Part shown: piece by piece, positions 1 through 64,000 of the stretch
How positions within the stretch are numbered: position 1 is the first letter of the stretch
Layout: each line of letters begins with the position of its first letter
NCBI GenBank assembly: GCA_964016885.1
Contig: OZ024742.1
Location: 165,788,001-165,852,000 of the forward strand
DNA: 64,000 nucleotides
From: Eledone cirrhosa
Taxonomy: Eukaryota
Reading direction: 5' to 3'
Notes under the pieces: model-generated
The model's database searches: none
The model's input: only the letters and a program-made list of their open reading frames with translations
What the model was told of the DNA's origin: nothing
Program-made: the position numbers and the translations under genes

Positions 1-3000
1 TACTTTCTACAGTTCCAGGATGAGGTGTCAGTCACAACTCCTGATAGGAACATCACTACTTTCTACAGTTCCAGGATGAGGTGTCAGTCACAACTCCTGA
101 TAGGAACATCACTGATTTCTACAGTTCCAGGATGAGATGTCTGTCACAACTCCTGATAGGAACACCACTGCTTTCTACAGTTCCAGAATGAGGTGTCAGT
201 CACAACTCCTGATAAGAACATCACTGCTTACTACGGTTCCAGGATGAGGTGTAAGTCACAACTCCTGATAGGAACATCACTGCTTTCTACAGTTCCAGAA
301 TGAGGTGTCAGTCACAACTCCTGATAGGAACATCACTGCTTACTACAGTTCCAGGATGAGGTGTAAGTCACAACTCCTGATAGGAACATCACTGCTTTCT
401 ACAGTTCCAGGATGAGGTGTCAGTCACAACTCCTGATAGGAATATCACTGCTTTCTACAGTTCCAGGATGAGATGTCTGTCACAACTCCTGATAGGAACA
501 TCACTGCTTTCTACAGTTCCAGGATGAGGTGTCAGTCACAACTCCTGATAGGAACATCACTGCTTTCTACAGTTCCAGGATGAGGTGTAAGTCACAACTC
601 CTGATAGGAACATCACTGCTTTCTACAGTTCCAGGATGAGATGTCTGTCACAACTCCTGATAGGAACATCACTGCTTTCTACAGTTGCAGGATGAGGTGT
701 AAGTCACAACTCCTGATAGGAACATCACTGCTTTCTACAGTTCCAGGATGAGATGTCTGTCACAACTCCTGCTAGGAACATTACTGCTTACTACAGTTCC
801 AGAATGAGGTGTCAGTCACAACTCCTGATAGGAACATCACTGCTTTCTACAGTTCCAGGATGAGGTGTCAGTCACAACTCCTGATAGGAACATCACTGCT
901 TTCTACAGTTCCAGAATGAGGTGTCAGGCACAACTCCTGATAGGAACATCACTGCTTTCTACAGTTCCAGGATGAGATGTCTGTCACAACTCCTGATAGG
1001 AACATCACTGCTTTCTACAGTTCCAGGATGAGGTGTCAGTCACAACTCCTGATAGGAACATCACTGCTTTCTACAGTTCCAGCATGAGGTGTCAGTCACA
1101 ACTCCTGATAGGAACATCACTGCTTTCTACAGTTCCAGGATGAGGTGTCAGTCACAACTCCTGATAGAACATCACTGCATTCTACTGTTCCAGGATGGAG
1201 AATGTCAACAACTCCTGATAGGAACATCACTGATTTCTACAGTTCCAGGATGAGATGTCTGGCACAACTCCTGATAGGAACACCACTGCTTTCTACAGTT
1301 CCAGAATGAGGTGTCAGTCACAACTCCTGATAAGAACATCACTGCTTACTACAGTTCCAGGATGAGGTGTAAGTCACAACTCCTGATAGGAACATCACTG
1401 CTTTCTACAGTTCCAGAATGAGGTGTCAGTCACAACTCCTGATAGGAACATCACTGCTTACTACAGTTCCAGGATGAGGTGTAAGTCACAACTCCTGATA
1501 GGAACATCACTGCTTTCTACGGTTCCAGGATGAGGTGTCAGTCACACCTCCTGATAGGAACATCACTGCTTTCTACAGTTCCAGGATGGGGAATGTCACA
1601 ACTCCTGATAGGAACATCACTGCTTTCTACTGTTCCAGGATGAGGTGTCAATCACAACTCTTGATAGGAACATCACTGCTTTCTACAGTTCCAGGATGAG
1701 GTGTCAGTCACACTTCCTGATAGGAACATCACTGCTTTCTACAGTTCCAGGATGGGGAATGTCACAACTCCTGATAGGAACATCACTGCTTTCTACTGTT
1801 CCAGGATGAGGTGTCAGTCACAACTCCTGATAGGAACATCACTGCTTTCTACACTTCCAGGATGAGGTGTCAGTCACAACTCCTGATAGGAACATCACTG
1901 CTTTCTACAGTTCCAGGATGAGATGTCTGTCACAACTCCTGATAGGAACATCACTGCTTTCTACAGTTCCAGGATGAGGTGTCAGTCACAACTCCTGATA
2001 GGAACATCACTGCTTTAAACAGTTCCAGGATGAGGTGTCAGTCACAACTCCTGATAGGAACATCACTGCTTTCTACAGTTCCAGGATGAGGTGTCAGTCA
2101 CAACTCCTGATAGGAACATCACTGCTTTCTACAGTTCCAGGATGAGGTGTCAGTCACAACTCCTGATAGGAACATCACTGCTTTCTACAGTTCCAGGATG
2201 AGGTGTCAGTCACAACTCCTGATAGAACATCGCTGCTTTCTACTGTTCCAGGATGGGGTGTCAGTCACAACTCCTGATAGGAACATCACTGCTTTCTACA
2301 GTTCCAGCATGAGGTGTCAGTCACAACTCCTGATAGGAACATCACTGCTTTCTACAGTTCCAGGATGAGGTGTCAGTCACAACTCCTGATAGAACATCAC
2401 TGCTTTCTACTGTTCCAGGATGGAGAATGTCAACAACTCCTGATAGGAACATCACTGCTTTCTAGAGTTCCAGAATGAGGTGTCAGTCACAACTCCTGAT
2501 AGGAACATCACTACTTTCTACAGTTCCAGGATGAGGTGTCAGTCACAACTCCTGATAGGAACATCACTACTTTCTACAGTTCCAGGATGAGGTGTCAGTC
2601 ACAACTCCTGATAGGAACATCACTGATTTCTACAGTTCCAGGATGAGATGTCTGTCACAACTCCTGATAGGAACGCCACTGCTTTCTACAGTTCCAGAAT
2701 GAGGTGTCAGTCACAACTCCTGATAAGAACATCACTGCTTACTACAGTTCCAGGATGAGGTGTAAGTCACAACTCCTGATAGGAACATCACTGCTTTCTA
2801 CAGTTCCAGGATGAGGTGTAAGTCACAACTCCTGATAGGAACATCACTGCTTTCTACAGTTCCAGGATGAGGTGTCAGTCACAACTCCTGATAGGAACAT
2901 CACTGCTTTCTATAGTTCCAGGATGGGGAATGTCACAACTCCTGATAGGAACATCACTGCTTTCTACTGTTCCAGGATGAGGTGTCAGTCACAACTCCTG

Positions 3001-6000
3001 ATAGGAACATCACTGCTTTCTACAGTTCCAGCATGAGGTGTCAGTCACAACTCCTGATAGGAACATCACTGCTTTCTACAGTTCCAGGATGAGATGTCTG
3101 TCACAACTCTTGATAGGAACATCACTGCTTTCTACAGTTCCAGGATGAGGTGTCAGTCACAACTCCTGATAGGAACATCACTGCTTACTACAGTTCCAGG
3201 ATGAGGTGTAAGTCACAACTCCTGATAGGAACATCACTGCTTTCTACAGTTCCGGGATGAGGTGTAAGTCACAACTCCTGATAGGAACATCACTGCTTTC
3301 TACAGTTCCAGGATGAGGTGTAAGTCACAACTCCTGATAGGAACATCACTGCTTTCTACAGTTCCAGGATGAGGTGTCAATCACAACTCCTGATAGGAAC
3401 ATCACTGCTTTCTACAGTTCCAGGATGAGGTGTCAGTCACACTTCCTGATAGGAACATCACTGCTTTCTACAGTTCCAGGATGGGGAATGTCACAACTCC
3501 TGATAGGAACATCACTGCTTTCTACTGTTCCAGGATGAGGTGTCAGTCACAACTCCTGATAGAACATCACTGCATTCTACTGTTCCAGGATGGAGAATGT
3601 CAACAACTCCTGATAGGAACATCACTGATTTCTACAGTTCCAGGATGAGATGTCTGTCACAACTCCTGATAGGAACACCACTGCTTTCTACAGTTCCAGA
3701 ATGAGGTGTCAGTCACAACTCCTGATAAGAACATCACTGCTTACTACAGTTCCAGGATGAGGTGTAAGTCACAACTCCTGATAGGAACATCACTGCTTTC
3801 TACAGTTCCAGAATGAGGTGTCAGTCACAACTCCTGATAGGAACATCACTGCTTACTACAGTTCCAGGATGAGGTGTAAGTCACAACTCCTGATAGGAAC
3901 ATCACTGCTTTCTACAGTTCCAGGATGAGGTGTCAGTCACACCTCCTGATAGGAACATCACTGCTTTCTACAGTTCCAGGATGGGGAATGTCACAACTCC
4001 TGATAGGAACATCACTGCTTTCTACTGTTCCAGGATGAGGTGTCAATCACAACTCTTGATAGGAACATCACTGCTTTCTACAGTTCCAGGATGAGGTGTC
4101 AGTCACACTTCCTGATAGGAACATCACTGCTTTCTACAGTTCCAGGATGGGGAATGTCACAACTCCTGATAGGAACATCACTGCTTTCTACTGTTCCAGG
4201 ATGAGGTGTCAGTCACAACTCCTGATAGGAACATCACTGCTTTCTACACTTCCAGGATGAGGTGTCAGTCACAACTCCTGATAGGAACATCACTGCTTTC
4301 TACAGTTCCAGGATGAGATGTCTGTCACAACTCCTGATAGGAACATCACTGCTTTCTACTGTTCCAGGATGAGGTGTCAGTCACAACTCCTGATAGGAAC
4401 ATCACTGCTTTAAACAGTTCCAGGATGAGGTGTCAGTCACAACTCCTGATAGGAACATCACTGCTTTCTACAGTTCCAGGATGAGGTGTCAGTCACAACT
4501 CCTGATAGGAACATCACTGCTTTCTACAGTTCCAGGATGAGGTGTCAGTCACAACTCCTGATAGGAACATCACTGCTTTCTACAGTTCCAGGATGAGGTG
4601 TCAGTCACAACTCCTGATAGAACATCGCTGCTTTCTACTGTTCCAGGATGGGGTGTCAGTCACAACTCCTGATAGGAACATCACTGCTTTCTACAGTTCC
4701 AGGATGAGGTGTCAGTCACAACTCCTGATAGGAACATCACTGCTTTCTACAGTTCCAGGATGAGGTGTCAGTCACAACTCCTGATAGGAACATCACTGCT
4801 TTCTACAGTTCCAGGATGAGGTGTCAGTCACAACTCCTGATAGAACATCACTGCTTTCTACTGTTCCAGGATGGAGAATGTCAACAACTCCTGATAGGAA
4901 CATCACTGCTTTCTAGAGTTCCAGAATGAGGTGTCAGTCACAACTCCTGATAGGAACATCACTACTTTCTACAGTTCCAGGATGAGGTGTCAGTCACAAC
5001 TCCTGATAGGAACATCACTACTTTCTACAGTTCCAGGATGAGGTGTCAGTCACAACTCCTGATAGGAACATCACTGATTTCTACAGTTCCAGGATGAGAT
5101 GTCTGTCACAACTCCTGATAGGAACGCCACTGCTTTCTACAGTTCCAGAATGAGGTGTCAGTCACAACTCCTGATAAGAACATCACTGCTTACTACAGTT
5201 CCAGGATGAGGTGTAAGTCACAACTCCTGATAGGAACATCACTGCTTTCTACAGTTCCAGGATGAGGTGTAAGTCACAACTCCTGATAGCAACATCACTG
5301 CTTTCTACAGTTCCAGGATGAGGTGTCAGTCACAACTCCTGATAGGAACATCACTGCTTTCTATAGTTCCAGGATGGGGAATGTCACAACTCCTGATAGG
5401 AACATCACTGCTTTCTACTGTTCCAGGATGAGGTGTCAGTCACAACTCCTGATAGGAACATCACTGCTTTCTACAGTTCCAGCATGAGGTGTCAGTCACA
5501 ACTCCTGATAGGAACATCACTGCTTTCTACAGTTCCAGGATGAGATGTCTGTCACAACTCTTGATAGGAACATCACTGCTTTCTACAGTTCCAGGATGAG
5601 GTGTCAGTCACAACTCCTGATAGGAACATCACTGCTTACTACAGTTCCAGGATGAGGTGTAAGTCACAACTCCTGATAGGAACATCACTGCTTTCTACAG
5701 TTCCGGGATGAGGTGTAAGTCACAACTCCTGATAGGAACATCACTGCTTTCTACAGTTCCAGGATAAGGTGTAAGTCACAACTCCTGATAGGAACATCAC
5801 TGCTTTCTACAGTTCCAGGATGAGGTGTCAATCACAACTCCTGATAGGAACATCACTGCTTTCTACAGTTCCAGGATGAGGTGTCAGTCACACTTCCTGA
5901 TAGGAACATCACTGCTTTCTACAGTTCCAGGATGGGGAATGTCACAACTCCTGATAGGAACATCACTGCTTTCTACTGTTCCAGGATGAGGTGTCAGTCA

Positions 6001-9000
6001 CAACTCCTGATAGGAACATCACTGCTTCCTACACTTCCAGGATGAGGTGTCAGTCACAACTCCTGATAGGAACATCACTGCTTTCTACAGTTCCAGGATG
6101 AGATGTCTGTCACAACTCCTGATAGGAACATCACTGCTTTCTACAGTTCCAGGATGAGTTGTCAGTCACAACTCCTGATAGGAACATCACTGCTTTCTAC
6201 AGTTCCAGGATGAGGTGTAAGTCACAACTCCTGATAGGAACATCACTGCTTACTACAGTTCCAGGATGAGGTGTCAGTCACAACTCCTGACAGGAACATC
6301 ACTGCTTTCTACAGTTCCAGGATGAGGTGTCAGTCACAACTCCTGATAGGAACATCACTGCTTTCTACAGTTCCAGAATGAGGTGTCAGTCACTACTCCT
6401 GATAGGAACATCACTGCTTTCTACAGTTCCAGGATGAGTTGTCAGTCACAACTCCTGATAGGAACATCACTGCTTTCTACAGTTCCAGGATGAGGTGTAA
6501 GTCACAACTCCTGATAGGAACATCACTGCTTACTACAGTTCCAGGATGAGGTGTCAGTCACAACTCCTGACAGGAACATCACTGCTTTCTACTGTTCCAG
6601 GATGAGGTGTCAGTCATAACTCCTGATAAGAACATCACTGTTTTCTACTGTTCCAGGATGAGGTGTCAGTCACAACTCCTGATAGGAACATCACTGCTTT
6701 CTACAGTTCCTGGATGAGGTGTCAGTCACAACTCCTGATAGGAACATCACTGCTTTCTGCTGTTTCAGGATTGGGGGTGTCACAACTCCTGATAGGAACA
6801 TCACTGCTTTCTACAGTTCCAGGATGAGGTGTCAGTCACAACTCCTGATAGGAACATCACTGCTTTCTGCAGTTCCAGGATGAGGTGTCAGTCACAACTC
6901 CTGATAGGAACATCACTGCTTTCTACTGTTCCAGGATTGGGGATGTCACAACTCCTGATAGGAACATCACTGCTTTCTACAGTTCCAGAATGAGGTGTCA
7001 GTCACAACTCCTGATAGGAACATCACTGCTTTCTACAGTTCCAGGATGAGGTGTCAGTCACAACTCCTGATAGGAACATCACTGCTTTCTACTGTTCCAG
7101 AAGGAGGTGTCAGTCACAACTCCTGATAGAACATCACTGCTTTCTACAGTTTCAGGATGAGGTGTCAGTCACAACTCCTGATAGGAACATCACTGCTTTC
7201 TACAGTTCCAGGATGAGGTGTCAGTCACAACTCCTGATAGGAACATCACTGCTTTCTGCAGTTCCAGGACGAGGTGTCAGTCACAACTCCTGATAGGAAC
7301 ATCACTGCTTTCTACTGTTCCAGGATTGGGGATGTCACAACTCCTGATAGGAACATCACTGCTTTCTACAGTTCCAGGATGAGGTGTAAGTCACAACTCC
7401 TGATAGGAACATCACTGCTTTCTACAGTTCCAGGGTGAGTTGTCAGTCACTGCTTTTTACTGTTCCAGGATGGAGAATGTCAACAACTCCTGATAGGAAC
7501 ATCACTGTTTTCTACAGTTCCAGAATGAGGTGTCAGTCACAACTCCTGATAGGAACATCACTGCTTTCTACAGTTCCAGAATGAGGTGTCAGTCACAACT
7601 CCTGATAGGAACATCACTGCTTTCTACAGTTCCAGGATGAGGTGTCAGTCACAACTCCTGATAGGAACATCACTGCTTTCTACAGTTCCAGAATGACGTG
7701 TCAGTCACAACTCCTGATAGGAACATCACTGCTTTCTACTGTTCCAGGATGAGGTGTCAGTCACAACTCCTGATAGGAACATCACTGCTTTCTACAGTTC
7801 CAGGATGAAATGTCAGTCACAACTCCTGATAGGAACATCACTGCTTTCTACAGTTCCAGGATGGGGAATGTCACAACTCCTGATAGGAACATCACTGCTT
7901 TCTACTGTTCCAGGATGAGGTGTCAGTCACAACTCCTGATAGGAACATCACTGCTTCCTACACTTCCAGGATGAGGTGTCAGTCACAACTCCTGATAGGA
8001 ACATCACTGCTTTCTACAGTTCCAGGATGAGATGTCTGTCACAACTCCTGATAGGAACATCACTGCTTTCTACAGTTCCAGGATGAGTTGTCAGTCACAA
8101 CTCCTGATAGGAACATCACTGCTTTCTACAGTTCCAGGATGAGGTGTAAGTCACAACTCCTGATAGGAACATCACTGCTTACTACAGTTCCAGGATGAGG
8201 TGTAAGTCACAACTCCTGACAGGAACATCACTGCTTTCTACAGTTCCAGGATGAGGTGTCAGTCACAACTCCTGATAGGAACATCACTGCTTTCTACAGT
8301 TCCAGAATGAGGTGTCAGTCACTACTCCTGATAGGAACATCACTGCTTTCTACAGTTCCAGAATGAGGTGTCAGTCACAACTCCTGATAGGAACATCACT
8401 GCTTTCTACAGTTCCAGGATGAGGTGTCAGTCACAACTCCTGATAGGAACATCACTGCTTTCTACAGTTCCAGAATGAGGTGTCAGTCACAACTCCTGAT
8501 AGGAACATCACTGCTTTCTACTGTTCCAGGATGAGGTGTCAGTCATAACTCCTGATAAGAACATCACTGTTTTCTACTGTTCCAGGATGAGGTGTCAGTC
8601 ACAACTCCTGATAGGAACATCACTGCTTTCTACAGTTCCTGGATGAGGTGTCAGTCACAACTCCTGATAGGAACATCACTGCTTTCTGCTGTTTCAGGAT
8701 TGGGGGTGTCACAACTCCTGATAGGAACATCACTGCTTTCTACAGTTCCAGGATGAGGTGTCAGTCACAACTCCTGATAGGAACATCACTGCTTTCTGCA
8801 GTTCCAGGATGAGGTGTCAGTCACAACTCCTGATAGGAACATCACTGCTTTCTACTGTTCCAGGATTGGGGATGTCACAACTCCTGATAGGAACATCACT
8901 GCTTTCTACAGTTCCAGAATGAGGTGTCAGTCACAACTCCTGATAGGAACATCACTGCTTTCTACAGTTCCAGGATGAGGTGTCAGTCACAACTCCTGAT

Positions 9001-11083
9001 AGGAACATCACTGCTTTCTACTGTTCCAGAAGGAGGTGTCAGTCACAACTCCTGATAGAACATCACTGCTTTCTACAGTTTCAGGATGAGGTGTCAGTCA
9101 CAACTCCTGATAGGAACATCACTGCTTTCTACAGTTCCAGGATGAGGTGTCAGTCACAACTCCTGATAGGAACATCACTGCTTTCTGCAGTTCCAGGACG
9201 AGGTGTCAGTCACAACTCCTGATAGGAACATCACTGCTTTCTACTGTTCCAGGATTGGGGATGTCACAACTCCTGATAGGAACATCACTGCTTTCTACAG
9301 TTCCAGGATGAGGTGTAAGTCACAACTCCTGATAGGAACATCACTGCTTTCTACAGTTCCAGGGTGAGTTGTCAGTCACTGCTTTCTACTGTTCCAGGAT
9401 GGAGAATGTCAACAACTCCTGATAGGAACATCACTGTTTTCTACAGTTCCAGAATGAGGTGTCAGTCACAACTCCTGATAGGAACATCACTGCTTTCTAC
9501 AGTTCCAGAATGAGGTGTCAGTCACAACTCCTGATAGGAACATCACTGCTTTCTACAGTTCCAGGATGAGGTGTCAGTCACAACTCCTGATAGGAACATC
9601 ACTGCTTTCTACAGTTCCAGAATGACGTGTCAGTCACAACTCCTGATAGGAACATCACTGCTTTCTACTGTTCCAGGATGAGGTGTCAGTCACAACTCCT
9701 GATAGGAACATCACTGCTTTCTACAGTTCCAGGATGAAATGTCAGTCACAACTCCTGATAGGAACATCACTGCTTTCTACAATTCCAGGATGAGGTGTCA
9801 GTCACAACTCCTGATAGGAACATCACTGCTTTCTACAATTCCAGGATGAAGTGTCAGTCACAACTCCTGATAGGAACATCACTGGTTTGTACAGTACCAG
9901 GATGAGGTGTCAGTCACAACTCCTGATAGAAACATCACTGCTTTCTACAGTTCCAGAATGACGTGTCAGTCACAACTCCTGATAGGAACATCACTGCTTT
10001 CTACAGTTTCAGGATGAGGTGTCAGTCACAACTCCTGATAGGAACATCACTGCTTTCTACTGTTCCAGGATGAGGTGTCAGTCACAACTCCTGATAGGAA
10101 CATCACTGCTTTCTACAGTTCCAGGATGAGGTGTCAGTCACAACTCCTGATAGGAACATCACTGCTTTCTACAGATCCAGGATGAGGTGTCAGTCACAAC
10201 TCCTGATAGGAACATCACTGCTTTCTACAGTTCCAGGATGAGGTATCAGTCACACCTCCTGATAGGAACATCACTGCTTTCTACTGTTCCAGGATGGGTG
10301 ATGTCACAACTCCTGATAGGCACATCACTGCTTTCTACAGTTCCAGGATGAGGTGTCAGTCACAACTCCTGATAGGAACATCACTGCTTTCTACAGTTCC
10401 AGGATGAGGTGTCAGTCACAACTCCTGATAGGAACATCACTGCTTTCTACAATTCCAGGATGAGGTGTCAGTCACAACTCCTGATAGGAACATCACTGCT
10501 TTCTACAATTCCAGGATGAAGTGTCAGTCACAACTCCTGATAGGAACATCACTGGTTTGTACAGTACCAGGATGAGGTGTCAGTCACAACTCCTGATAGA
10601 AACATCACTGCTTTCTACAGTTCCAGAATGAGGTGTCAGTCACAACTCCTGATAGGAACATCACTGCTTTCTACAATTCCAGGATGAAGTGTCAGTCACA
10701 ACTCCTGATAGGAACATCACTGGTTTGTACAGTACCAGGATGAGGTGTCAGTCACAACTCCTGATAGAAACATCACTGCTTTCTACAGTTCCAGAATGAG
10801 GTGTCAGTCACAACTCCTGATAGAAACATCACTGCTTTCTACAGTTTCAGGATGAGGTGTCAGTCACAACTCCTGATAGGAACATCACTGCTTTCTACAG
10901 TTCCAGGATGAGGTGTCAGTCACAACTCCTGATAGGAACATCACTGCTTTCTACAGTTCCAGGATGAGGTGTCAGTCACAACTCCTGATAGGAACATCAC
11001 TGCTTTCTACAGTTCCAGAATGAGGTGTCAGTCACAACTCCTGATAGAACATCACTGCTTTCTACTGTTCCAGGATGGGGAAT
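1..11083. repeat. 56-bp tandem satellite (about 198 copies), runs off the window start
   Basis: Unit GTCACAACTCCTGATAGGAACATCACTGCTTTCTACAGTTCCAGGATGAGGTGTCA; starts at 31, 87 and onward (period 56); no unique spacers. Confidence 0.98.
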
Positions 11084-14337: not shown

Positions 14338-14428
14338 AAATACCTCCTATGTTGACCAGATGAAAGCATGGTATGATTTAAAATCTAAACAAGAAGTTGT
14401 CAACCGGTTGTTATTCCAAAAGTTACAG
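14338..14428 (+). CDS. WASHC5: Strumpellin exon
   Basis: ccacag|AAATAC...TTACAG|gtaact; NTSYVDQMKAWYDLKSKQEVVNRLLFQKLQ; phase matches the previous exon. Confidence 0.93.
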
Positions 14429-14495
14429 GTAACTTTCTATTTAATATACATTTTCATATTGTACAATATATATTATACAAGCTATTGTACTATAT

Positions 14496-14711
14496 CCCTT
14501 TAGCATTTAAACCAGCCATATCTGGTCAGAATATTCTCACCTCTTTCTGTTCAAACCAGCTGTAACTGGCCGCTCATACTGATGTTAAGGTATTGTTCTC
14601 AAAATACATAATATCAAAATCTCATAGATTCGATATTATGTGAGATAATTATGTGAAGTAAAGCCTTTACCACGAAAATATAATAGTAAATATAGAGTAA
14701 TGTAAATGTTA

Positions 14712-14716
<5 letters not shown>
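14496..14716. mobile_element. piggyBac-like MITE (copy 1)
   Basis: TIR ccctttagcattta ... taaatgttaaaggg; same body as 17935-18153 and 18240-18447. Confidence 0.8.
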
Positions 14717-14758
<42 letters not shown>

Positions 14759-15020
14759 TAAAACATGTCTATAGAATCACATGATAAAATATATACCATT
14801 TCCTCTCCCAATTAGCATAATTAACTATATAAAATATCGAATAGACCAGGCTATAAGAATGAGGCTTCTATGAAGAAATCTCCAACAAATAACCGAAACT
14901 AGCCCTTTTCGTCGGCCGCAACGGAATATTTATTGAATATTTCGACAGCGTAATCGCCCAGATACAGTCAATTAAACAGAATTAGGTGTAAAATAAACTA
15001 GGAGAAAATAGAATACATTT

Positions 15021-15113
15021 AAATACCTCTACCATGGTTTCGTCCGCATTTTGAGATTTCCAATAATTATCTAATAATTATGTAACTCGAGCATCGGATT
15101 CATCAGGAGATTT
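15021..15113 (-). ncRNA. Type I hammerhead ribozyme (copy 1)
   Basis: Minus strand: aaatCTC-CTGATGA-aTCCG...CGGAc-GAAA-CCATGG-TA-GAGgtattt; palindromic stem III ACCATGGT; GUA cleavage triplet. Confidence 0.8.
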
Positions 15114-15671
15114 GCTCTGATCTAGACACTAAATTTTCCAAAGTGATCGCGCCAAGAATTCATTCAAAATGGCTAAGAATCGTGATGTAGTAGCGGTCAG
15201 GTTGGAAGGGGTGTGGTAGTTGCTTATGGCTGGTGGTTTTTTTGCTAGAAAACACAGCACAATACAGCCAAATTTGTATCTCAACCTAATGGGAAATTAT
15301 TACATATAAAAGTTTACATATATATATATATACATATACGTGTTTTGCAACGGGTCACTTTGTGGCTCAATGAAAATTTAATAAATTAAATAATCAGAGC
15401 TATATATCATAAAACATGTCTATAGAATCACAAGATAAAATATATACCATTTCCTCTCCCAATTAGCATAATTAACTATATAAAAAATCGAATAGACCAG
15501 GCTATAAGAATGAGGCTTCTATGAAGAAATCTCCAACAAATAACCGAAACTAGCCCTTCGCGTCGGCCGCAACGGAATATTTATCGAATATTTCGACAGC
15601 GTAATCGCCCAGATACAGTCAATTAAACAGAATTAGGTGTAAAATAAACTAGGAGAAAATAGAATACATTT

Positions 15672-15764
15672 AAATACCTCTACCATGGTTTCGTCCGCAT
15701 TTTGAGATTTCCAATAATTATCTAATAATTATGTAACTCGAGCATCGGATTCATCAGGAGATTT
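15672..15764 (-). ncRNA. Type I hammerhead ribozyme (copy 2)
   Basis: Identical motif to 15021-15113, 651 bp downstream. Confidence 0.8.
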
Positions 15765-17363
15765 GCTCTGATCTAGACACTAAATTTTCCAAAGTGATCG
15801 CGCCAAGAATTCATTCAAAATGGCTAAGAATCGTGACGTAGTAGCGGTCAGGTTGGAAGGGGTGTGGTAGTTATTACGGCTGGTGGTTTTTTTGCTAGAA
15901 AGCACATGTAAACTTTTATATATATATATATACATACAAGGATCTACTGACCATAATACTCGCATGGAATTACCAAATGAGGTTTATTTTTCAAACATAA
16001 TCTGTGGAGAAAAACAGTGCAGTTATTAACAAGAAGAGTTGAAATTAATGCATGCAAAATTTCACAGCACTAGTATCACAAGTATCTTGGTCAGCCTATG
16101 AACTTTTCAGCTAACCTTCGTGTTGTACAGTATAAATTGATATTTTGTTAATTTGGTGTATTGTAAGAGTTTAGGTACAATGGAATTATTGTACTCTCTA
16201 ATTAAGACTGCCCCTCACCCTCCTAATTTACATAAATGACTTGTACATAAATCAGGACCATGAACCCTGTTATCACCTCTCCCTACACACATAGACATGT
16301 ATTGACTCTTTAATTAAGGACATGACAAACTTCCTAGTGTTGCTGTCACAATGATATACACCAAGTACACTCTGTAAAGTGGTTGTCATTAGAAACGACA
16401 TCCAGCTGTAGAAACTAATCTAAAACTAGAATGTTTCTAAGCCAAACATGTTTACTCATAGCTATAACCTCTAACTGTTCATCAACCATATCAATCTCAT
16501 CAGTCTAACTCCTTTCTCTTGATTAGAATTAGAGTTAGGCTGTGTGTATCCAGATTAGAATATGTACACCATATCCCTGCATATCATAAGAAGTGACTAA
16601 ATAGTTGATGTCATGAAGGGCATCTAACTGTAAAACATTGCCTCAAAAATCCTTCCCAGCCCATACCAGCATGGGAAAGTCAATGTAAAAATGATGATGA
16701 TTTACATGCATTTTTTTCATGCTTTGCAGGGATTGAACAAGATCCAGGGCTTATCCTAGTTTCATGAGCATTAAGTGACTGAGGGTGCAAGATTTCCCCT
16801 CTCTCTCCCTGAATGGGATGTCAGTTTGGAGGACTAACCTCCAACTGGTCCTTAGTTTCAGCTGAGTGAACTGAAGCAATGTGAAATGAAGTGCCTTGCT
16901 CAAGAACACAATGTCACCTCACCTAGGAATCAAACCCACAACCTTGTGATTATGTGCCCAAATATCTTCACTTCTGATTAAAAACACACTTACACAGATA
17001 CACTAATTCAGTTTAGGAAGAGTATTTAACACTTTCATTACCATATTTCTAGTGAAAGACACTGTTTATGATTTTAAATTAAATTTGAAAAAAATTAAAG
17101 ACCATATCCAGTGCATGTGTTTTTATTTTTCATTGGTAAATGACCCCACTTGAACTTTAAATAACAATTACAATTCCTAGTTTTGAACACGTACAACTAA
17201 ACATGGAAAAAACCAAGAAAGTATGTTCACTTTTTTTTCCATCTCCAAGGATACTTAACCCAATTTTCTCTATTATTTATAGTAACTGACTATTATTATG
17301 GTCATTTGCATTGGGAGGCACACATTTCAAATAAATATTTTATTTTATTTTATTTTTCTCCAG

Positions 17364-17538
17364 AAAGCTGTTGGCAGTTTTGGTTTGAATGGACTTGACC
17401 GACTCATCTCATTCATGATTGTTCAGGAATTGCAACATTTCAATGCCCTCTTGTACAAAAGTGTCCTACGAGATAAAGGGGTTATTGAAATGATTTCTAC
17501 TTTATCAAAATCCCTGAACCCTATAAAAGGCCTCGTCA
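17364..17538 (+). CDS. WASHC5: Strumpellin exon
   Basis: ctccag|AAAGCT...GTCA|gtaagt; KAVGSFGLNGLDRLISFMIVQELQHF...PIKGLV. Confidence 0.95.
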
Positions 17539-18447: not shown

Positions 18448-18639
18448 TTAAAACAAATAGAATTGAAGAACTAGTGGTGGTTTCAGGTGCTTAGATATCA
18501 AGAGGGTTAAACTATCAACCTCAAAAACTGTTCACTGTTGAATGGAAGAGTAAAAGAAGGATTCATCAGATTTTCTGGTTAAATTTGAAAACAGTGATAT
18601 TGTATAGCTGGAGGTGGGTATAGTTATGGTATGGTATCC

Positions 18640-19340
18640 ATAATAGGGGATAGGTTGTTGTGAGATAGTAGCTATAATTGGGGTAGGTTGTTGTAAGATG
18701 GTAGCTATAATGGAGGTAGATTGTTGTGAGATAGTAGTCATAATGGGGGTAGATTGTTGTGAGATGGTAACTGTAATGGGGGGTAGATTGTTGTGAGATG
18801 GTAGCTATAATGGGGGGTAGATTTTTGTGAGACGGTAGCTATAATGGGAGTAGATTGTGAAGTGGTAGCTATAATGGGGGTAGGTTGTTGTGAGATAGTA
18901 GTCATAATGGGGTAGACTTGTGAGATGGTAGTCATAATGGGGTAGACTGTTGTGAGATGGTAGTCATAATGGAAATAGGTTGTTGTGAGGTGATAACCAT
19001 AATAGAGGTAGGTTGTTGTGAGGTGGTAGCTATAATGGGAGTAGGTTGTTGTGAGGTGATAACCATAATAGGGGTAGGTTGTTGTGAGGTGGTAGCTATA
19101 ATGGGAGTAGGTTGTTGTGAGATACTAACCATAATAGGGGTAGGTTGTTGTGAGGTGGTAGCTATAATGGGAGTAGGTTGTTGTGATGTGATAACCATAA
19201 TAGGAGTAGGTTGTTATGAGGTGGTAGCTATAATGGGAGTAGGTTGTTGTGATAATCATAATGGAGGTAGGTTGTTGTGGGGTGGTAGCTATAATGGGAG
19301 TTGTTTGTTGTAAGATGTTAGCTATAATGAAGTTATGAGA
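18640..19340. repeat. About 33-bp intronic minisatellite
   Basis: Unit approx. GTGAGGTGGTAGCTATAATGGGAGTAGGTTGTT, about 20 copies; two alternating variants in the 3' half. Confidence 0.9.
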
Positions 19341-44539: not shown

Positions 44540-45457
44540 ACATTGATCTCTCCAGTCTCAGCGGAACTATAAAAGCATGGCTACTGCCTCTTCTGCCAGA
44601 CATTGATCTCTCCAAACTCAGAAAGCCTATGGAAGCCATGGACTCTGCTCCTTCCTCCAAACATTGGTCACTTCAGTCTATGAGGGCCTGTAAAAGCCAT
44701 GGGCACTGCTCTTTCCTCCAGACATCAGTCACTTCTGTCTATGAGGGCCCTTGAAAGCCATGGGCACTGCACCTTCCTCCAGACATCAGTCACTTCTGTC
44801 TATGAGGGCCCTTGAAAGCCATGGGCACTGCTCCTTCCTCCAGTCATCAGTTACTTTTGTCTATGAGGGCCCTTGAAAGCCATAGGCACTGCTCCTTCCT
44901 CCAGACATCAGTCACTTCTGTCTATGAGGGCCCTTGAAAGCCATGGGCACTGCACCTTCCTCTAGACATCAGTCACTTCTGTCTATAAGGGCCTGTGAAA
45001 GCCAAGAGCACTGCCCCTTCCTCTAGACATCAGTCAATTCAGTCCCTGAGAGCCTGTGAAAGCCAAGAGCACTGCTTCTTCCTCTAGACATCAGTCAATT
45101 CAGTCCCTGAGAGCCTGTGAAAGCCATAGGCACTGCTTCTTCCTCTAGACATCAGTCAATTCAGTCCCTGAGAGCCTGTGAAAGCCATAGGCACTGCCTC
45201 TTCCTCTAGACATCAGTCAATTCAGTCCCTGAGAGCCTGTGAAAGCCATAGGCACTGCTTCTTCCTCTAGACATCAGTCAATTCAGTCCCTGAGAGCCTG
45301 TGAAAGCCATAGGCACTGCTTCTTCCTCTAGACATCAGTCAATTCAGTCCCTGAGAGCCTGTGAAAGCCAAGAGCACTGCCCCTTCCTCTAGACATCAGT
45401 CAATTCAGTCCCTGAGAGGCTGTGAAAGCCATAGGCACTGCTCCTTGCTCCAGACAT
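44540..45457. repeat. 60/61-bp tandem array (about 15 units, two subtypes)
   Basis: gggcactgc at 44701, 44762 and 44823 (period 61); diverged 60-bp precursors at 44541 and 44601. Confidence 0.92.
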
Positions 45458-59368: not shown

Positions 59369-62300
59369 CTACCCCATTCATATGGTTAATCACCCAACTA
59401 CAGGACTACAGTAGATTACGAATGCAGCAATAGGTCATGTAGAACTGTGACTGATGTCTACCCATTGCTAGGGTTAATCACCCAACTACAGGACTACAGT
59501 AGATTATGAATGCACAATAGGTCATGTAGAAGTGTGGCTGACTTCTGCCCATTTCTAGGGTTATCACCCAACTACAGGACTACAGCAGATTATGAATGCA
59601 GATATAGGTCATGTAGAACTGTGACTGACTTCTACACATTGCTATGGTTAATCACCCAGATATAGGTCATGTAGAACTGTGACTGACTTCTAACCATTGC
59701 TATGGTTAATCACCCAACTACAGGACTACAGTAGAATATGAATGCACAATAGGTCATGTAGAACTGTGACTGACTTCTACCCATTGCTATGGTTAATCAC
59801 CCAAATACAGGACTACAGTAGATTATGAATGCAACAATAGGTCATGTAGAACTGTGACTGACTTCTACCTATTGCTAGGGTTAATCTCTCAACTACAGGT
59901 CTACAGTCGATTATGAATGCAGATATAGGTCATATAGAACTGTGACTGACTTCTACCCATTGCTAGTGTTAATCACGCAACTAGAGGAATACAGTAGATT
60001 ATGAATGCAGATATAGGTCATGTAGCAGTGTGATTGACTTCTACACATTGCTATGGTTAATCACACAACTACAGGACCTAAGTAGGTTATGAATGCATAT
60101 ATAGGTCATGTAGAACTTTGACTGACTTCTATCCATTGCTAGGGTTAATCACGCAACTACAGGACTACAGTAGATTATGAATACAGATATAGGTCATGTA
60201 GAAGTGTGACTGACTTCTACACATTGCTATGGTTAATCACACAACTACAGGACCTAAGTAGGTTATAAATTCAGATATAGGTCATATAGCAGTGTGATTG
60301 ACTTCTACACATTGCTATGGTTAATCACCCAGATATAGGTCATGTAGAACTGTGACTGACTTCTACCCATTGCTAGGGTTAATCTCCCAACAACAAGACT
60401 ACAGTAGATTATGAATTCCGATATAGGTCATGTAGAACTGTGACTGACTTCTACCCATTGCTATGGTTAATCATCCAGATATAGGTCATGTAGAACTGTG
60501 ACTGACTTCTACTCATTGCTAGGGTTAATCACCCAACTACAGGACTATAATAGATTATGAATGCAGATATAGGTCATGTAGAACTGTGACTGACTTCTAC
60601 CCATTGCTAGGGTTAATCAACCAGCTACAGGACTATAGTAGATTATGAATGCAGATTAAGGTCATGTAGAACTGTGACTGACTTCTACCCATTACTAGGG
60701 TTAATCACCCAACTACAGGACTACAGTAGATTATGAATGAAGATATAGGTCATGTAGAACTGTGACTGACTTCTACCCATTGCTATGGTTAATCACCCAA
60801 CTACAGGATTACAGTAGATTATGAATGCAGATGAAGGTCATGTAGAACTGTGACTGACTTCTACCCATTGCTAGGGTTAATCACGCAACTAGAGGAATAC
60901 AGTAGATTATGAATGCAGATATAGGTTATGTAGAACTGTAACTGACTTCTAACAATTGCTAGGGTTAATCAACCAACTACAGGACTACAGTATATTATGA
61001 ATGCAGCAATAGGTGATGTAGAACTGTGACTGACTTCTACCCATTGCTAGGGTTAATCACGCAACTAGAGGAATACAGTAGATTATGAATGCAGATATAG
61101 GTCATGTAGAACTGTGACTGACTTCTAGCCATTTCTAGGGTTAATCACCCAACAACAGGACTACAATAGATTATGAATGCAGATATAGGTCATGTAGAAC
61201 TGTAACTGACTTCTAACAATTGCTAGGGTTAATCAACCAACTACAGGACTACAGTATATTATGAATGCAGCAATAGGTCATGTAGAACTGTGACTGACTT
61301 CTACCCATTGCTAGGGTTAATCACGCAACTAGAGGAATACAGTAGATTATGAATGCAGCAATAGGTCATGTAGAACTGTGACTGACTTCTACCCATTTCT
61401 AGGGTTAATCACCCAACTACAGGACTACAGCAGATTATGAATGCAGATATAGGTCATGTAGAACTGTGACTGACTTCTACACATTGCTATGGTTAATCAC
61501 CCAGATATAGGTCATGTAGAACTGTGACTGACTTCTAACCATTGCTATGGTTAATCACCCAACTAGAGGACTACAGTAGAATATGAATGCACAATAGGTC
61601 ATGTAGAACTGTGACTGACTTCTACCCATTGCTATGGTTAATCACCCAAATACAGGACTACAGTAGATTATGAATGCAACAATAGGTCATGTAGAACTGT
61701 GACTGACTTCTACCTATTGCTAGGGTTAATCTCTCAACTACAGGTCTACAGTCGATTATGAATGCAGATATAGGTCATATAGAACTGTGACTGACTTCTA
61801 CCCATTGCTAGTGTTAATCACGCAACTAGAGGAATACAGTAGATTATGAATGCAGATATAGGTCATGTAGCAGTGTGATTGACTTCTACACATTGCTATG
61901 GTTAATCACACAACTACAGGACCTAAGTAGGTTATGAATGCATATATAGGTCATGTAGAACTTTGACTGACTTCTATCCATTGCTAGGGTTAATCACGCA
62001 ACTACAGGACTACAGTAGATTATGAATACAGATATAGGTCATGTAGAAGTGTGACTGACTTCTACACATTGCTATGGTTAATCACACAACTACAGGACCT
62101 AAGTAGGTTATAAATTCAGATATAGGTCATATAGCAGTGTGATTGACTTCTACACATTGCTATGGTTAATCACCCAGATATAGGTCATGTAGAACTGTGA
62201 CTGACTTCTACCCATTGCTAGGGTTAATCTCCCAACAACAAGACTACAGTAGATTATGAATTCCGATATAGGTCATGTAGAACTGTGACTGACTTCTACC

Positions 62301-64000
62301 CATTGCTATGGTTAATCATCCAGATATAGGTCATGTAGAACTGTGACTGACTTCTACTCATTGCTAGGGTTAATCACCCAACTACAGGACTATAATAGAT
62401 TATGAATGCAGATATAGGTCATGTAGAACTGTGACTGACTTCTACCCATTGCTAGGGTTAATCAACCAGCTACAGGACTATAGTAGATTATGAATGCAGA
62501 TTAAGGTCATGTAGAACTGTGACTGACTTCTACCCATTACTAGGGTTAATCACCCAACTACAGGACTACAGTAGATTATGAATGAAGATATAGGTCATGT
62601 AGAACTGTGACTGACTTCTACCCATTGCTATGGTTAATCACCCAACTACAGGATTACAGTAGATTATGAATGCAGATGAAGGTCATGTAGAACTGTGACT
62701 GACTTCTACCCATTGCTAGGGTTAATCACGCAACTAGAGGAATACAGTAGATTATGAATGCAGATATAGGTTATGTAGAACTGTAACTGACTTCTAACAA
62801 TTGCTAGGGTTAATCAACCAACTACAGGACTACAGTATATTATGAATGCAGCAATAGGTGATGTAGAACTGTGACTGACTTCTACCCATTGCTAGGGTTA
62901 ATCACGCAACTAGAGGAATACAGTAGATTATGAATGCAGATATAGGTCATGTAGAACTGTGACTGACTTCTAGCCATTTCTAGGGTTAATCACCCAACAA
63001 CAGGACTACAATAGATTATGAATGCAGATATAGGTCATGTAGAACTGTAACTGACTTCTAACAATTGCTAGGGTTAATCAACCAACTACAGGACTACAGT
63101 ATATTATGAATGCAGCAATAGGTCATGTAGAACTGTGACTGACTTCTACCCATTGCTAGGGTTAATCACGCAACTAGAGGAATACAGTAGATTATGAATG
63201 CAGCAATAGGTCATGTAGAACTGTGACTGACTTCTACCCATTTCTAGGGTTAATCACCCAACTACAGGACTACAGTAGATTATGAATGCAGATATAGGTC
63301 ATGTAGAACTGTTACTGAATTCTACCCATTGCTAGGGTTAATCAACCAACTACAGGACTACAGTAGATTATGAATGCTGCAATAGGTCATGTAGAACTGT
63401 GACAGACTTCTACACATTTGTAGGGTTAATCACGCAACTAGAGGAATACAGTAGATTATGAATGCAGATATAGGTCATGTAGAACTGTGACTGACTTCTA
63501 CCCATTGCTAGGGTTAATCACGCAACTACAGGACTACAGTAGATTATGAATGCAGATATAGGTCATGTAGAACTGTGACTGACTTCTACCCATTTCTAGG
63601 GTTAATCACCCAACAACAGGACTACAGCAGATTATGAATGCAGCAATAGGTCATGTAGAACTGTAACTGACTTCTACCCATTGCTAGGGTTAATCAAACA
63701 ACTACAGGACTACAGTAGATTATGAATGCAGATATAGGTCATGTAGAAGTGTGACTGACTTCTACACATTGCTATGGTTAATCACACAACTACAGGACCT
63801 AAGTAGGTTATGAATGCAGATACAGGTAATGTAGAACTGTGACTAACTTCTACCCATTGCTATGGTTAATCACCCAACTACAGGACTACAGTAGATTATA
63901 AATTCAGATATGGGTCATGTAGAACTGTGACTGACTTCTACCCATTGCTATGGTTAATCACCCAACTACAGGAATACAGTAGATTATGAATGCAGCAATA
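59369..64000. repeat. 88-bp tandem satellite with 58-bp deletion variants, runs off the window end
   Basis: Unit GGTTAATCACCCAACTACAGGACTACAGTAGATTATGAATGCAGATATAGGTCATGTAGAACTGTGACTGACTTCTACCCATTGCTAG; ggtcatg at 60748 and 60836. Confidence 0.97.

Follow-up and report, generated by a model that had tools for sequence, protein, structure and literature searches.

Tandem hammerhead units in the genome of Eledone cirrhosa and their Penelope-like pattern of insertion

Introduction

An intron of the WASHC5 gene of Eledone cirrhosa carries, in antisense orientation, a tandem repeat with two hammerhead ribozymes and TA runs on either side, and this locus raises the question of what kind of mobile element it represents, which machinery inserted it, and what part the ribozyme plays in its spread. 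The locus lies within the stretch of DNA analyzed here (the window, 64,000 nucleotides of contig OZ024742.1). In a preliminary description, made from the letters of the window alone, it was taken for a retrozyme-like element mobilized by Penelope machinery, with a candidate circular RNA. The role of the hammerhead in Penelope-like elements (PLEs), as well as circular templates for the tandem insertions of PLEs and retrozymes, were the subject of proposals in 2014 (PMC4209133), and in 2021 they were described as unclear (PMC8557442); in the available text of the first source and of a review (PMC6765202), the circle-template idea is stated as tentative.

Structure of the insert in the WASHC5 intron

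The host gene, on the plus strand, had been correctly recognized as strumpellin/WASHC5. The intron (14429-17363) is bordered on its 5' side by an exon (14338..14428, plus strand) whose neighboring exons match PF10266, and on its 3' side by an exon (17364..17537, plus strand) that matches PF10266 with an E value of 9e-10. The unit is numbered here from u1 to u651 along the minus strand, with u1 at window position 15906 (window = 15907 - u). The main arm of the insert (14750..15906, minus strand) is 5'-truncated and comprises 1,157 bp, that is, a full 651-bp unit plus 506 bp. It stops at the proximal of two fixed sites, unit position u506, in the target microsatellite (TA)20 (14717..14756) that marks the 3' end of the element. 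Alignment of 14750-15256 with 15401-15906 yields 496/506 identical positions, 10 mismatches, and 1 gap, so that the claimed period of 651 bp and the near identity of the repeats both hold. The two units reported earlier, however, amount to 1.78, since only 506 bp are duplicated. The remainder of the insert is a 16-bp inverted stub (u588-603; 15906..15921, plus strand), which reaches the distal fixed site and forms the second arm of the insertion. This stub had been missed when the element was placed at 14757..15910, and the right end lies instead at ~15921. A (TA)8 tract (15917..15932) at this end overlaps the stub by microhomology, and TA runs are thus present on both sides, as first described. 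The reported lack of an ORF is likewise confirmed, with a longest stop-free stretch of 55 aa; the GC content of the unit is 34%.

Hammerhead 1 (15676..15762, minus strand) is of type I and consists of stem I, the core, stem II with a long extension, and a 2-bp stem III with a palindromic loop; hammerhead 2 occupies 15025..15111 on the same strand. Their predicted cuts, at 15681/15680 and 15030/15029, fall between u226 and u227 and are indeed 651 nt apart, and the predicted cut-to-cut monomer of 651 nt (15030..15680, minus strand) is a candidate circle. Three further features of the minus strand recur below. A 100-nt "tail" separates the fixed 3' end sites u506 and ~u606 and contains an internal TA tract (internal copy at 15301..15400). 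A conserved predicted hairpin is located directly 3' of the distal end site (15278..15298). Two short conserved motifs 5' of the ribozyme (15799..15824), each found in 55/62 units, may serve as an internal promoter.

The argument that an antisense hammerhead would spare the WASHC5 pre-mRNA is logically correct, and nothing about this intronic insertion is out of the ordinary or predicted to affect WASHC5. The locus has no special standing, being one 5'-truncated insertion among thousands. DNA contigs aligned to this locus provided repeat depth only, and none of them bridged an empty site. As judged from contig depth, the element has very high-copy repeats on either side of it in the intron (14442-14725 and 15933-16145), and the window also contains large tandem arrays at 3-11077, 18631-19329, 44624-45457, and 59373-63995, with periods of 56, 33, 61, and 88 bp, respectively.

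Core, fold, and covariation of the hammerhead

Both copies contain the described minus-strand motif CUGAUGA...GAAA-CCAUGG-UA, together with stems I and II and the palindromic stem III, and the conserved core elements CUGANGA / GAAA / UH are arranged in type I order. In a set of 96 hammerheads, gathered with a fuzzy core pattern, variation of the core is common at N7 only (74 U, 13 A). Within this set, the commonest form of pair 10.1/11.1 is A-U (38), followed by A·C (26), U/A (15, among them 11 with an additional base), and G-C (7). The copy in the WASHC5 intron has A·C in place of the canonical G10.1-C11.1 pair. The A-C mismatch noted earlier is thus real, but it is a subfamily allele, with C in 22 and T in 37 of 61 passes, and mismatches at the same pair are also found in other hammerheads of the E. 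cirrhosa genome.

Across 22 diverse copies, 91.5% of the alignment cells pair, compared to 32–42% in slid controls. Two-sided changes are seen in 7 of the 13 pairs, a number reached by none of 500 shuffles, although relatedness of the copies inflates this test and stem II is misaligned in one row (L089) of the covariation alignment A1. Stems I and II covary, whereas stem III is invariant in the 22 copies. In a distant family that gives no blastn alignment to the unit, the core is kept, stems I and II are rewritten, and the palindrome of stem III is replaced by a different palindrome, with a changed loop. The hammerhead fold is shown by this covariation and is very probably under selection.

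Stem III is composed of 2 bp and a palindromic tetraloop, and the ribozyme also has a symmetric mismatch. The stem is real, and the ribozyme, which had been assigned to the minimal class, is not stem-less; in min-HHRs, helix III is absent and an extra unpaired base precedes G10.1-C11.1 (PMC4209133, in the text available). Pairing between two stem III strands is worth -13.2 kcal/mol, and the active-like fold of the monomer lies 2.5 kcal/mol above its minimum, a combination that fits cleavage as a dimer. PLE hammerheads reportedly cleave in this manner (Lunse et al., as cited in PMC6765202). The Rfam hammerhead models gave no match to the insert at E<=10, probably because of the long stem II.

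Copy number and subfamilies

The genome was searched over 3.0 Gb in 1,796 contigs, and the other genomic copies on which the preliminary description depended were found in the thousands. A DNA search with the unit returned 2,914 candidates, 40 of which were scored, all being 94–100% identical. A sister family with ~69% identity has 2,352 candidates, and the distant family 3,126. The 15-nt 3' motif of the hammerhead has 2,661 exact matches, compared to 1 for the reversed control, and the insert is for that reason not a product of chance. The junction of the u506 end with (TA)n has 1,227 exact matches and the hairpin motif directly 3' of the distal end 2,294, with no matches of either control. 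At 90% identity, 62 units form 11 groups, the periods being 645–708 bp. The family is thus a non-coding, high-copy superfamily with tandem hammerhead units, at least two of them consecutive.

The unit contains no B box and has no Rfam tRNA match, which leaves it without the tRNA module or Pol III signal of a SINE-like PLE parasite. A tRNA-Ile-like fold at u291-379 was dismissed as chance, as ARAGORN matched it only at a threshold lowered to 80 and 300 shuffles gave 62 matches.

Other hammerhead tandems were encountered along the way. The distant family (L170-L181, for example L171:1500-2150; the 3,126 candidates above) has a period of ~484 bp and the same hairpin after the distal end, and it forms tandem and inverted copies with no linked ORF seen. 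Another tandem, with a period of 459 and a hammerhead with an extended stem II, lies inside a TA run at L053:7010-7919. Canonical-looking type I hammerheads with G10.1-C11.1, possibly of a classical retrozyme family, are present at L057:103 (-) and L060:7986 (+), and further hammerhead types recur in L051, L056, L059, L067, L061, and L063.

Two fixed ends and an inverted arm

The ends of the copies were compared in 90 distinct loci with 143 arms, the first 40 loci having been chosen for a full unit. In this sample, 136 of the 143 arms terminate at two sites 100 nt apart, u497-508 (75 arms) and u575-615 (61 arms), and (TA)n with n of at least 4 adjoins 130 of these 136 family 3' ends. The 5' ends of the arms are scattered. 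Among 45 head-to-head junctions, 41 combine one end of each type, none combines two alike, and four include a broken arm. If the ends were independent, about half of the pairs would be mixed, and the probability of the observed pairing would be about 3e-13. The same rule is followed by all 25 of the intact pairs in the sets that were not chosen for a full unit, and by the copy in the WASHC5 intron, owing to its 16-bp stub.

Partial tandems, an inverted 5' arm, a tail on one side only, and an AT-rich target are all present, and together they make up the insertion footprint of PLEs. The arms and mixed pairs counted above support the proposal of mobilization by Penelope machinery, and the ends of the insertions are set by two probable priming sites and not by the ribozyme cut. 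We infer, by analogy with PAc, that the conserved hairpin 3' of the distal end is a candidate binding site of a PLE protein. At one locus (L009, upstream of 1322), the ~26 nt that lead up to the u506 end are repeated head-to-tail several times, which resembles repeated re-priming on a short template.

Relation to the PLEs of the genome

Matches to PLE proteins occur in 10 of 115 sampled element loci (8 places), and the PLE fragments inspected beside the element belong to several different families that share with it a TA run or an inverted junction. The possibility, raised at the outset, that all copies adjoin a PLE ORF and are ordinary pLTR remnants was checked in these 115 loci and in 30 loci with the hairpin motif, none of which has a PLE ORF in the pLTR-ORF register. 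An ORF with RT and GIY-YIG between the repeats, the mark of an autonomous PLE, was absent from the loci examined. In L029 and L061, where related units adjoin PLE ORFs, these units were considered as pLTRs and rejected, being separate insertions in TA runs.

The genome contains 10,597 GIY-YIG candidates, 150 of which were scored, with 50 loci inspected. Both RT and GIY-YIG were confirmed in its PLEs, and roughly six families were seen. The CX2-5CxxC linker, proposed to target (TA)n, is present in five of these, and at least three PLE families also end at two TA-joined sites. In 54 PLE loci from about six families, no partner with sequence in common with the unit was found by blastn, by nhmmer with a 62-unit profile, or by the hairpin motif; a Neptune-type PLE is the candidate partner. 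At L086:600-1954 (L169), an element lies head-to-head with a 5'-truncated Neptune-type PLE fragment, in what is either a chimera or the result of a second insertion, made later in the shared TA run. A pattern scan found no pLTR hammerhead in two of the commonest autonomous Neptune-type families (L063:7968-8378 and L052:7100-8300).

5' ends at the cut site

Cleavage in vivo was approached by counting copies that begin at the predicted cut. Exact matches to the 20 bases that follow it number 485 in the subfamily of the window and 1,000 in the sister subfamily, and both preceding bases are missing in 4 and 11 of them, respectively. Two of these 15 matches were dropped, one for a 3-nt duplication and one for a 12-nt deletion, which leaves 13 copies that truly begin at the cut and adjoin an inverted arm, (TA)n, or flank. 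The resulting 13/1,485 compares with 1.3–2.4 expected (P<=2e-6), the expectation being taken from a differently sampled background of 0.0016 ends per base (136 passes in 100 stretches, with 11 + 11 of the stretches picked for lacking or having the upstream motif). Most of the signal comes from the sister subfamily (11/1,000), the 2/485 of the window's subfamily not being significant alone, and local hot spots of 5' ends exist elsewhere, for example at u566-569. An earlier reading that no 5' ends fall at the cut, derived from small and partly pre-selected samples (0 of 143 arms; 1 ambiguous case in 136), was abandoned after the genome-wide count gave a small excess.

This excess suggests that RT runs off ribozyme-cut RNA in about 1–2% of passes and that cleavage takes place in vivo; as far as genomic copies can tell, cutting of the RNA probably occurs in the germ line. 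The cut site is crossed without indels in 61 of 61 aligned passes, and ~98% of passes cross it, which indicates that the usual template is either uncut or re-ligated. Short extra pieces that also start at or next to the cut, with TA runs between them and the main arm, were seen in L218 and L230.

Shared alleles and a 45-unit array

Common non-CpG alleles extend to every pass of their locus in 51/64 tandem cases and in 62/73 inverted ones, compared to 11% between loci. Where at least three passes from both arms overlap, they are fixed in only 8/16 cases. Splits between tandem passes account for 13/64 common alleles, with site u441 split in 4 loci. Private alleles common to both tandem passes number 6, with 0.1 expected, and private and rare alleles together are shared at 15/5,920 sites in tandem and 13/4,888 in inverted passes (P=1.0). 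The copy in the WASHC5 intron has one such shared private or rare allele, at u185. The sharing of alleles across both tandem and inverted passes points to the repeated copying of one unit.

The longest array, from the sister subfamily, contains 45 units in 29.7 kb (G000:C1:92,985,600-93,016,034; L212-L215). It ends at u506 and its inverted arm at the distal site, both in (TA)n. Its units form 17–23 lineages that are 5.8% apart from one another and 6.1% from the inverted arm, distances that would be expected if many identical units had been laid down together, although an early expansion at the DNA level would look alike. Later DNA duplication has enlarged the array, as seen in higher-order repeats of 6 and 5 units, and the array is a retrozyme turning into a satellite. 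This array and trimer loci are possible linear sources of template.

The conserved hairpin, located 3' of the distal end, would be present only in multimers or circles, and if it is indeed a protein binding site, then only these forms may be usable as templates. As a circle, the monomer folds with no unusual degree of structure (z -1.4, 40 shuffles). Given the family assignment, the balance tips modestly toward a circular template.

Possible mechanism of insertion and its alternatives

The family very probably represents a non-autonomous PLE with a hammerhead under selection. According to our main reading, to which we assign a probability of roughly 0.58, it is a non-LTR retrozyme that borrows the enzyme of an EN+ PLE and is copied from a ribozyme-cut, re-ligated RNA circle. 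A tandem locus would be transcribed, and two hammerheads would cut, as the excess of cut-site 5' ends suggests, probably by pairing via the palindromic stem III, with the monomer then ligated into a circle. A PLE endonuclease would cut the (TA)n target, and each strand would prime one cDNA, one at u506 and the other at u606. RT would circle the unit and halt at variable points, and the two cDNAs would be joined into the head-to-head structure observed in the copies. We can propose more tentatively, at somewhat less than even odds, that the copies are a rolling-circle record, in which a hammerhead-made circle of 650–700 nt is read by a Penelope-type RT dimer, with both TA strands primed at two fixed sites on one RNA, to yield from 1 to >10 identical units and an inverted arm per event.

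The template could instead be an uncut, linear read-through multimer of the same non-autonomous PLE, transcribed from trimers or long arrays, with cutting only occasional and the units homogenized by gene conversion or rare bottlenecks. PAc is the only PLE with an in vitro test; in the available text, mutation of its ribozyme left insertion unaffected, which speaks against the circle, and the main template was unprocessed RNA, which speaks for a linear one (PMC11167929). The low share of cut-site stops, the existence of multimer loci, and the alleles split between tandem passes are all in keeping with such a template, and gene conversion between neighboring units could also produce the shared alleles. 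However, no recurring position-specific allele pattern is evident except at u441, and the rate at which rare alleles are shared is equal for tandem passes and inverted arms. Units of the 45-mer differ by ~5%, so that linear daughters would be heterogeneous, and no reason is offered for the conservation of the ribozyme across subfamilies that are 30% apart; a linear multimer is on balance unlikely. Ribozyme-cut linear monomers, with tandems created when RT reaches the 5' end of a monomer and jumps to the 3' end of a second one, would agree with the excess of 5' ends at the cut and, through a single-unit bottleneck, with the shared alleles. Jumps of RT from end to end usually leave small scars, as in R2, whereas the junction here is seamless in every aligned pass and nearly all passes cross it, which makes such jumping quite improbable.

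Still harder to defend is the view that the units are pLTRs of an autonomous PLE whose ORF-bearing master escaped sampling. It appeals to the fraction of GIY-YIG candidates that were scored and inspected and to the PLE fragments adjoining 8 sampled places, but the units follow one another head-to-tail up to 45 times with no ORF between them. The adjoining fragments come from several families that have only the TA target or the inverted junction in common and are not in the pLTR-ORF register, and no pLTR is found in the 54 PLE loci with the 62-unit profile. The last alternative concerns the inverted arm alone and is compatible with either template: fold-back self-priming, proposed for Penelope (PMC3846280, in the text available), followed by an endonuclease cut at the second site and no second target-primed cDNA. 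It would also yield one end of each type and shared alleles, and 3 of the 41 head-to-head pairs have near-symmetric junctions. In 12 of these pairs, however, neither arm is contained in the other, which would require a later central deletion, and PAc, as far as described in PMC11167929, cuts and extends both target strands, with RT starting at two sites. Fold-back thus appears somewhat doubtful as the origin of the arm.

Significance

Owing to its thousands of copies, the family offers signatures that can be counted, namely one-of-each pairing of ends, the excess of 5' ends at the cut site, shared alleles, and a 45-mer with PLE termini, and the same counts can be applied to any genome; the unit, at 651 nt, is also convenient for assays. 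If the rolling-circle reading is true, one mechanism would explain the arrays of retrozymes, the tail of PLEs, and the role of their hammerhead. The WASHC5 locus itself is ordinary; the family to which it belongs is a test bed for the mechanism of retrozymes and PLEs. The literature covered on cephalopod or octopus retrozymes, non-autonomous hammerhead PLEs, and rolling or twin priming, chiefly the main texts of open-access papers, contained nothing on this family or on such end counts.

Comparison with known systems

Non-LTR retrozymes have been described and proposed as passengers of PLEs (PMC7229834; bioRxiv 10.64898/2026.07.22.740005), and the family presented here probably belongs to this kind; in the available text of the 2026 preprint of Li, Clavereau & Pollet (10.64898/2026.07.22.740005), no mollusc is among the genomes sampled. 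Like the animal non-LTR retrozymes (Cervera & de la Pena 2020, PMC7229834; 10.64898/2026.07.22.740005, as far as available), it consists of non-coding, low-GC tandem units with a type I hammerhead in each, ranges from monomers to multimers, and co-occurs with PLEs. Its unit of about 645–720 bp exceeds the retrozyme circles shown in these sources (170–400 nt) and falls within the 51–972 bp of the preprint, and it differs from the animal elements described there by the long extension of stem II. The link to PLEs is read here from the insertion ends, whereas in the accessible parts of the retrozyme papers it comes from co-occurrence, a shared type of ribozyme, and pLTR homology; no pLTR homologue of the present family was found in the 54 PLE loci.

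Most Chlamys elements are described as having no canonical hammerheads, and the non-autonomous ones (for example MRC1) generally resemble their autonomous partners at the 3' end, a resemblance not found here (PMC8557442, text available). The EN+ PLEs (the Neptune clade, Penelope of A. vaga, and PAc) share with the family 5' truncation, partial tandems, an inverted arm joined head-to-head, and a tail often confined to one end (PMC8557442, PMC3846280), as well as AT-rich or microsatellite targets and a hammerhead upstream of two internal RT start sites (PMC8557442, PMC3846280, PMC11167929, PMC4209133), as far as these sources are available. The family differs from them in having no ORF and in the length of its tail, 100 nt rather than 30–40. 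In PAc, as described in the available text, the two internal RT start sites bound the tail and are not homologous to the target, whereas both end sites of the family have TA microhomology with it (PMC11167929). The ribozyme, with its real stem III, is also distinct from the min-HHRs described for PLEs (PMC4209133, in part). Among the ribozymes described in the available sources, the nearest is HHR_Amex2 of the axolotl, in which stem III has 2 bp and a tetraloop and stem II has a mismatch at its base. Its monomer reached 22% cleavage in 1 h, and its dimer was cleaved to a much greater extent (PMC7229834).
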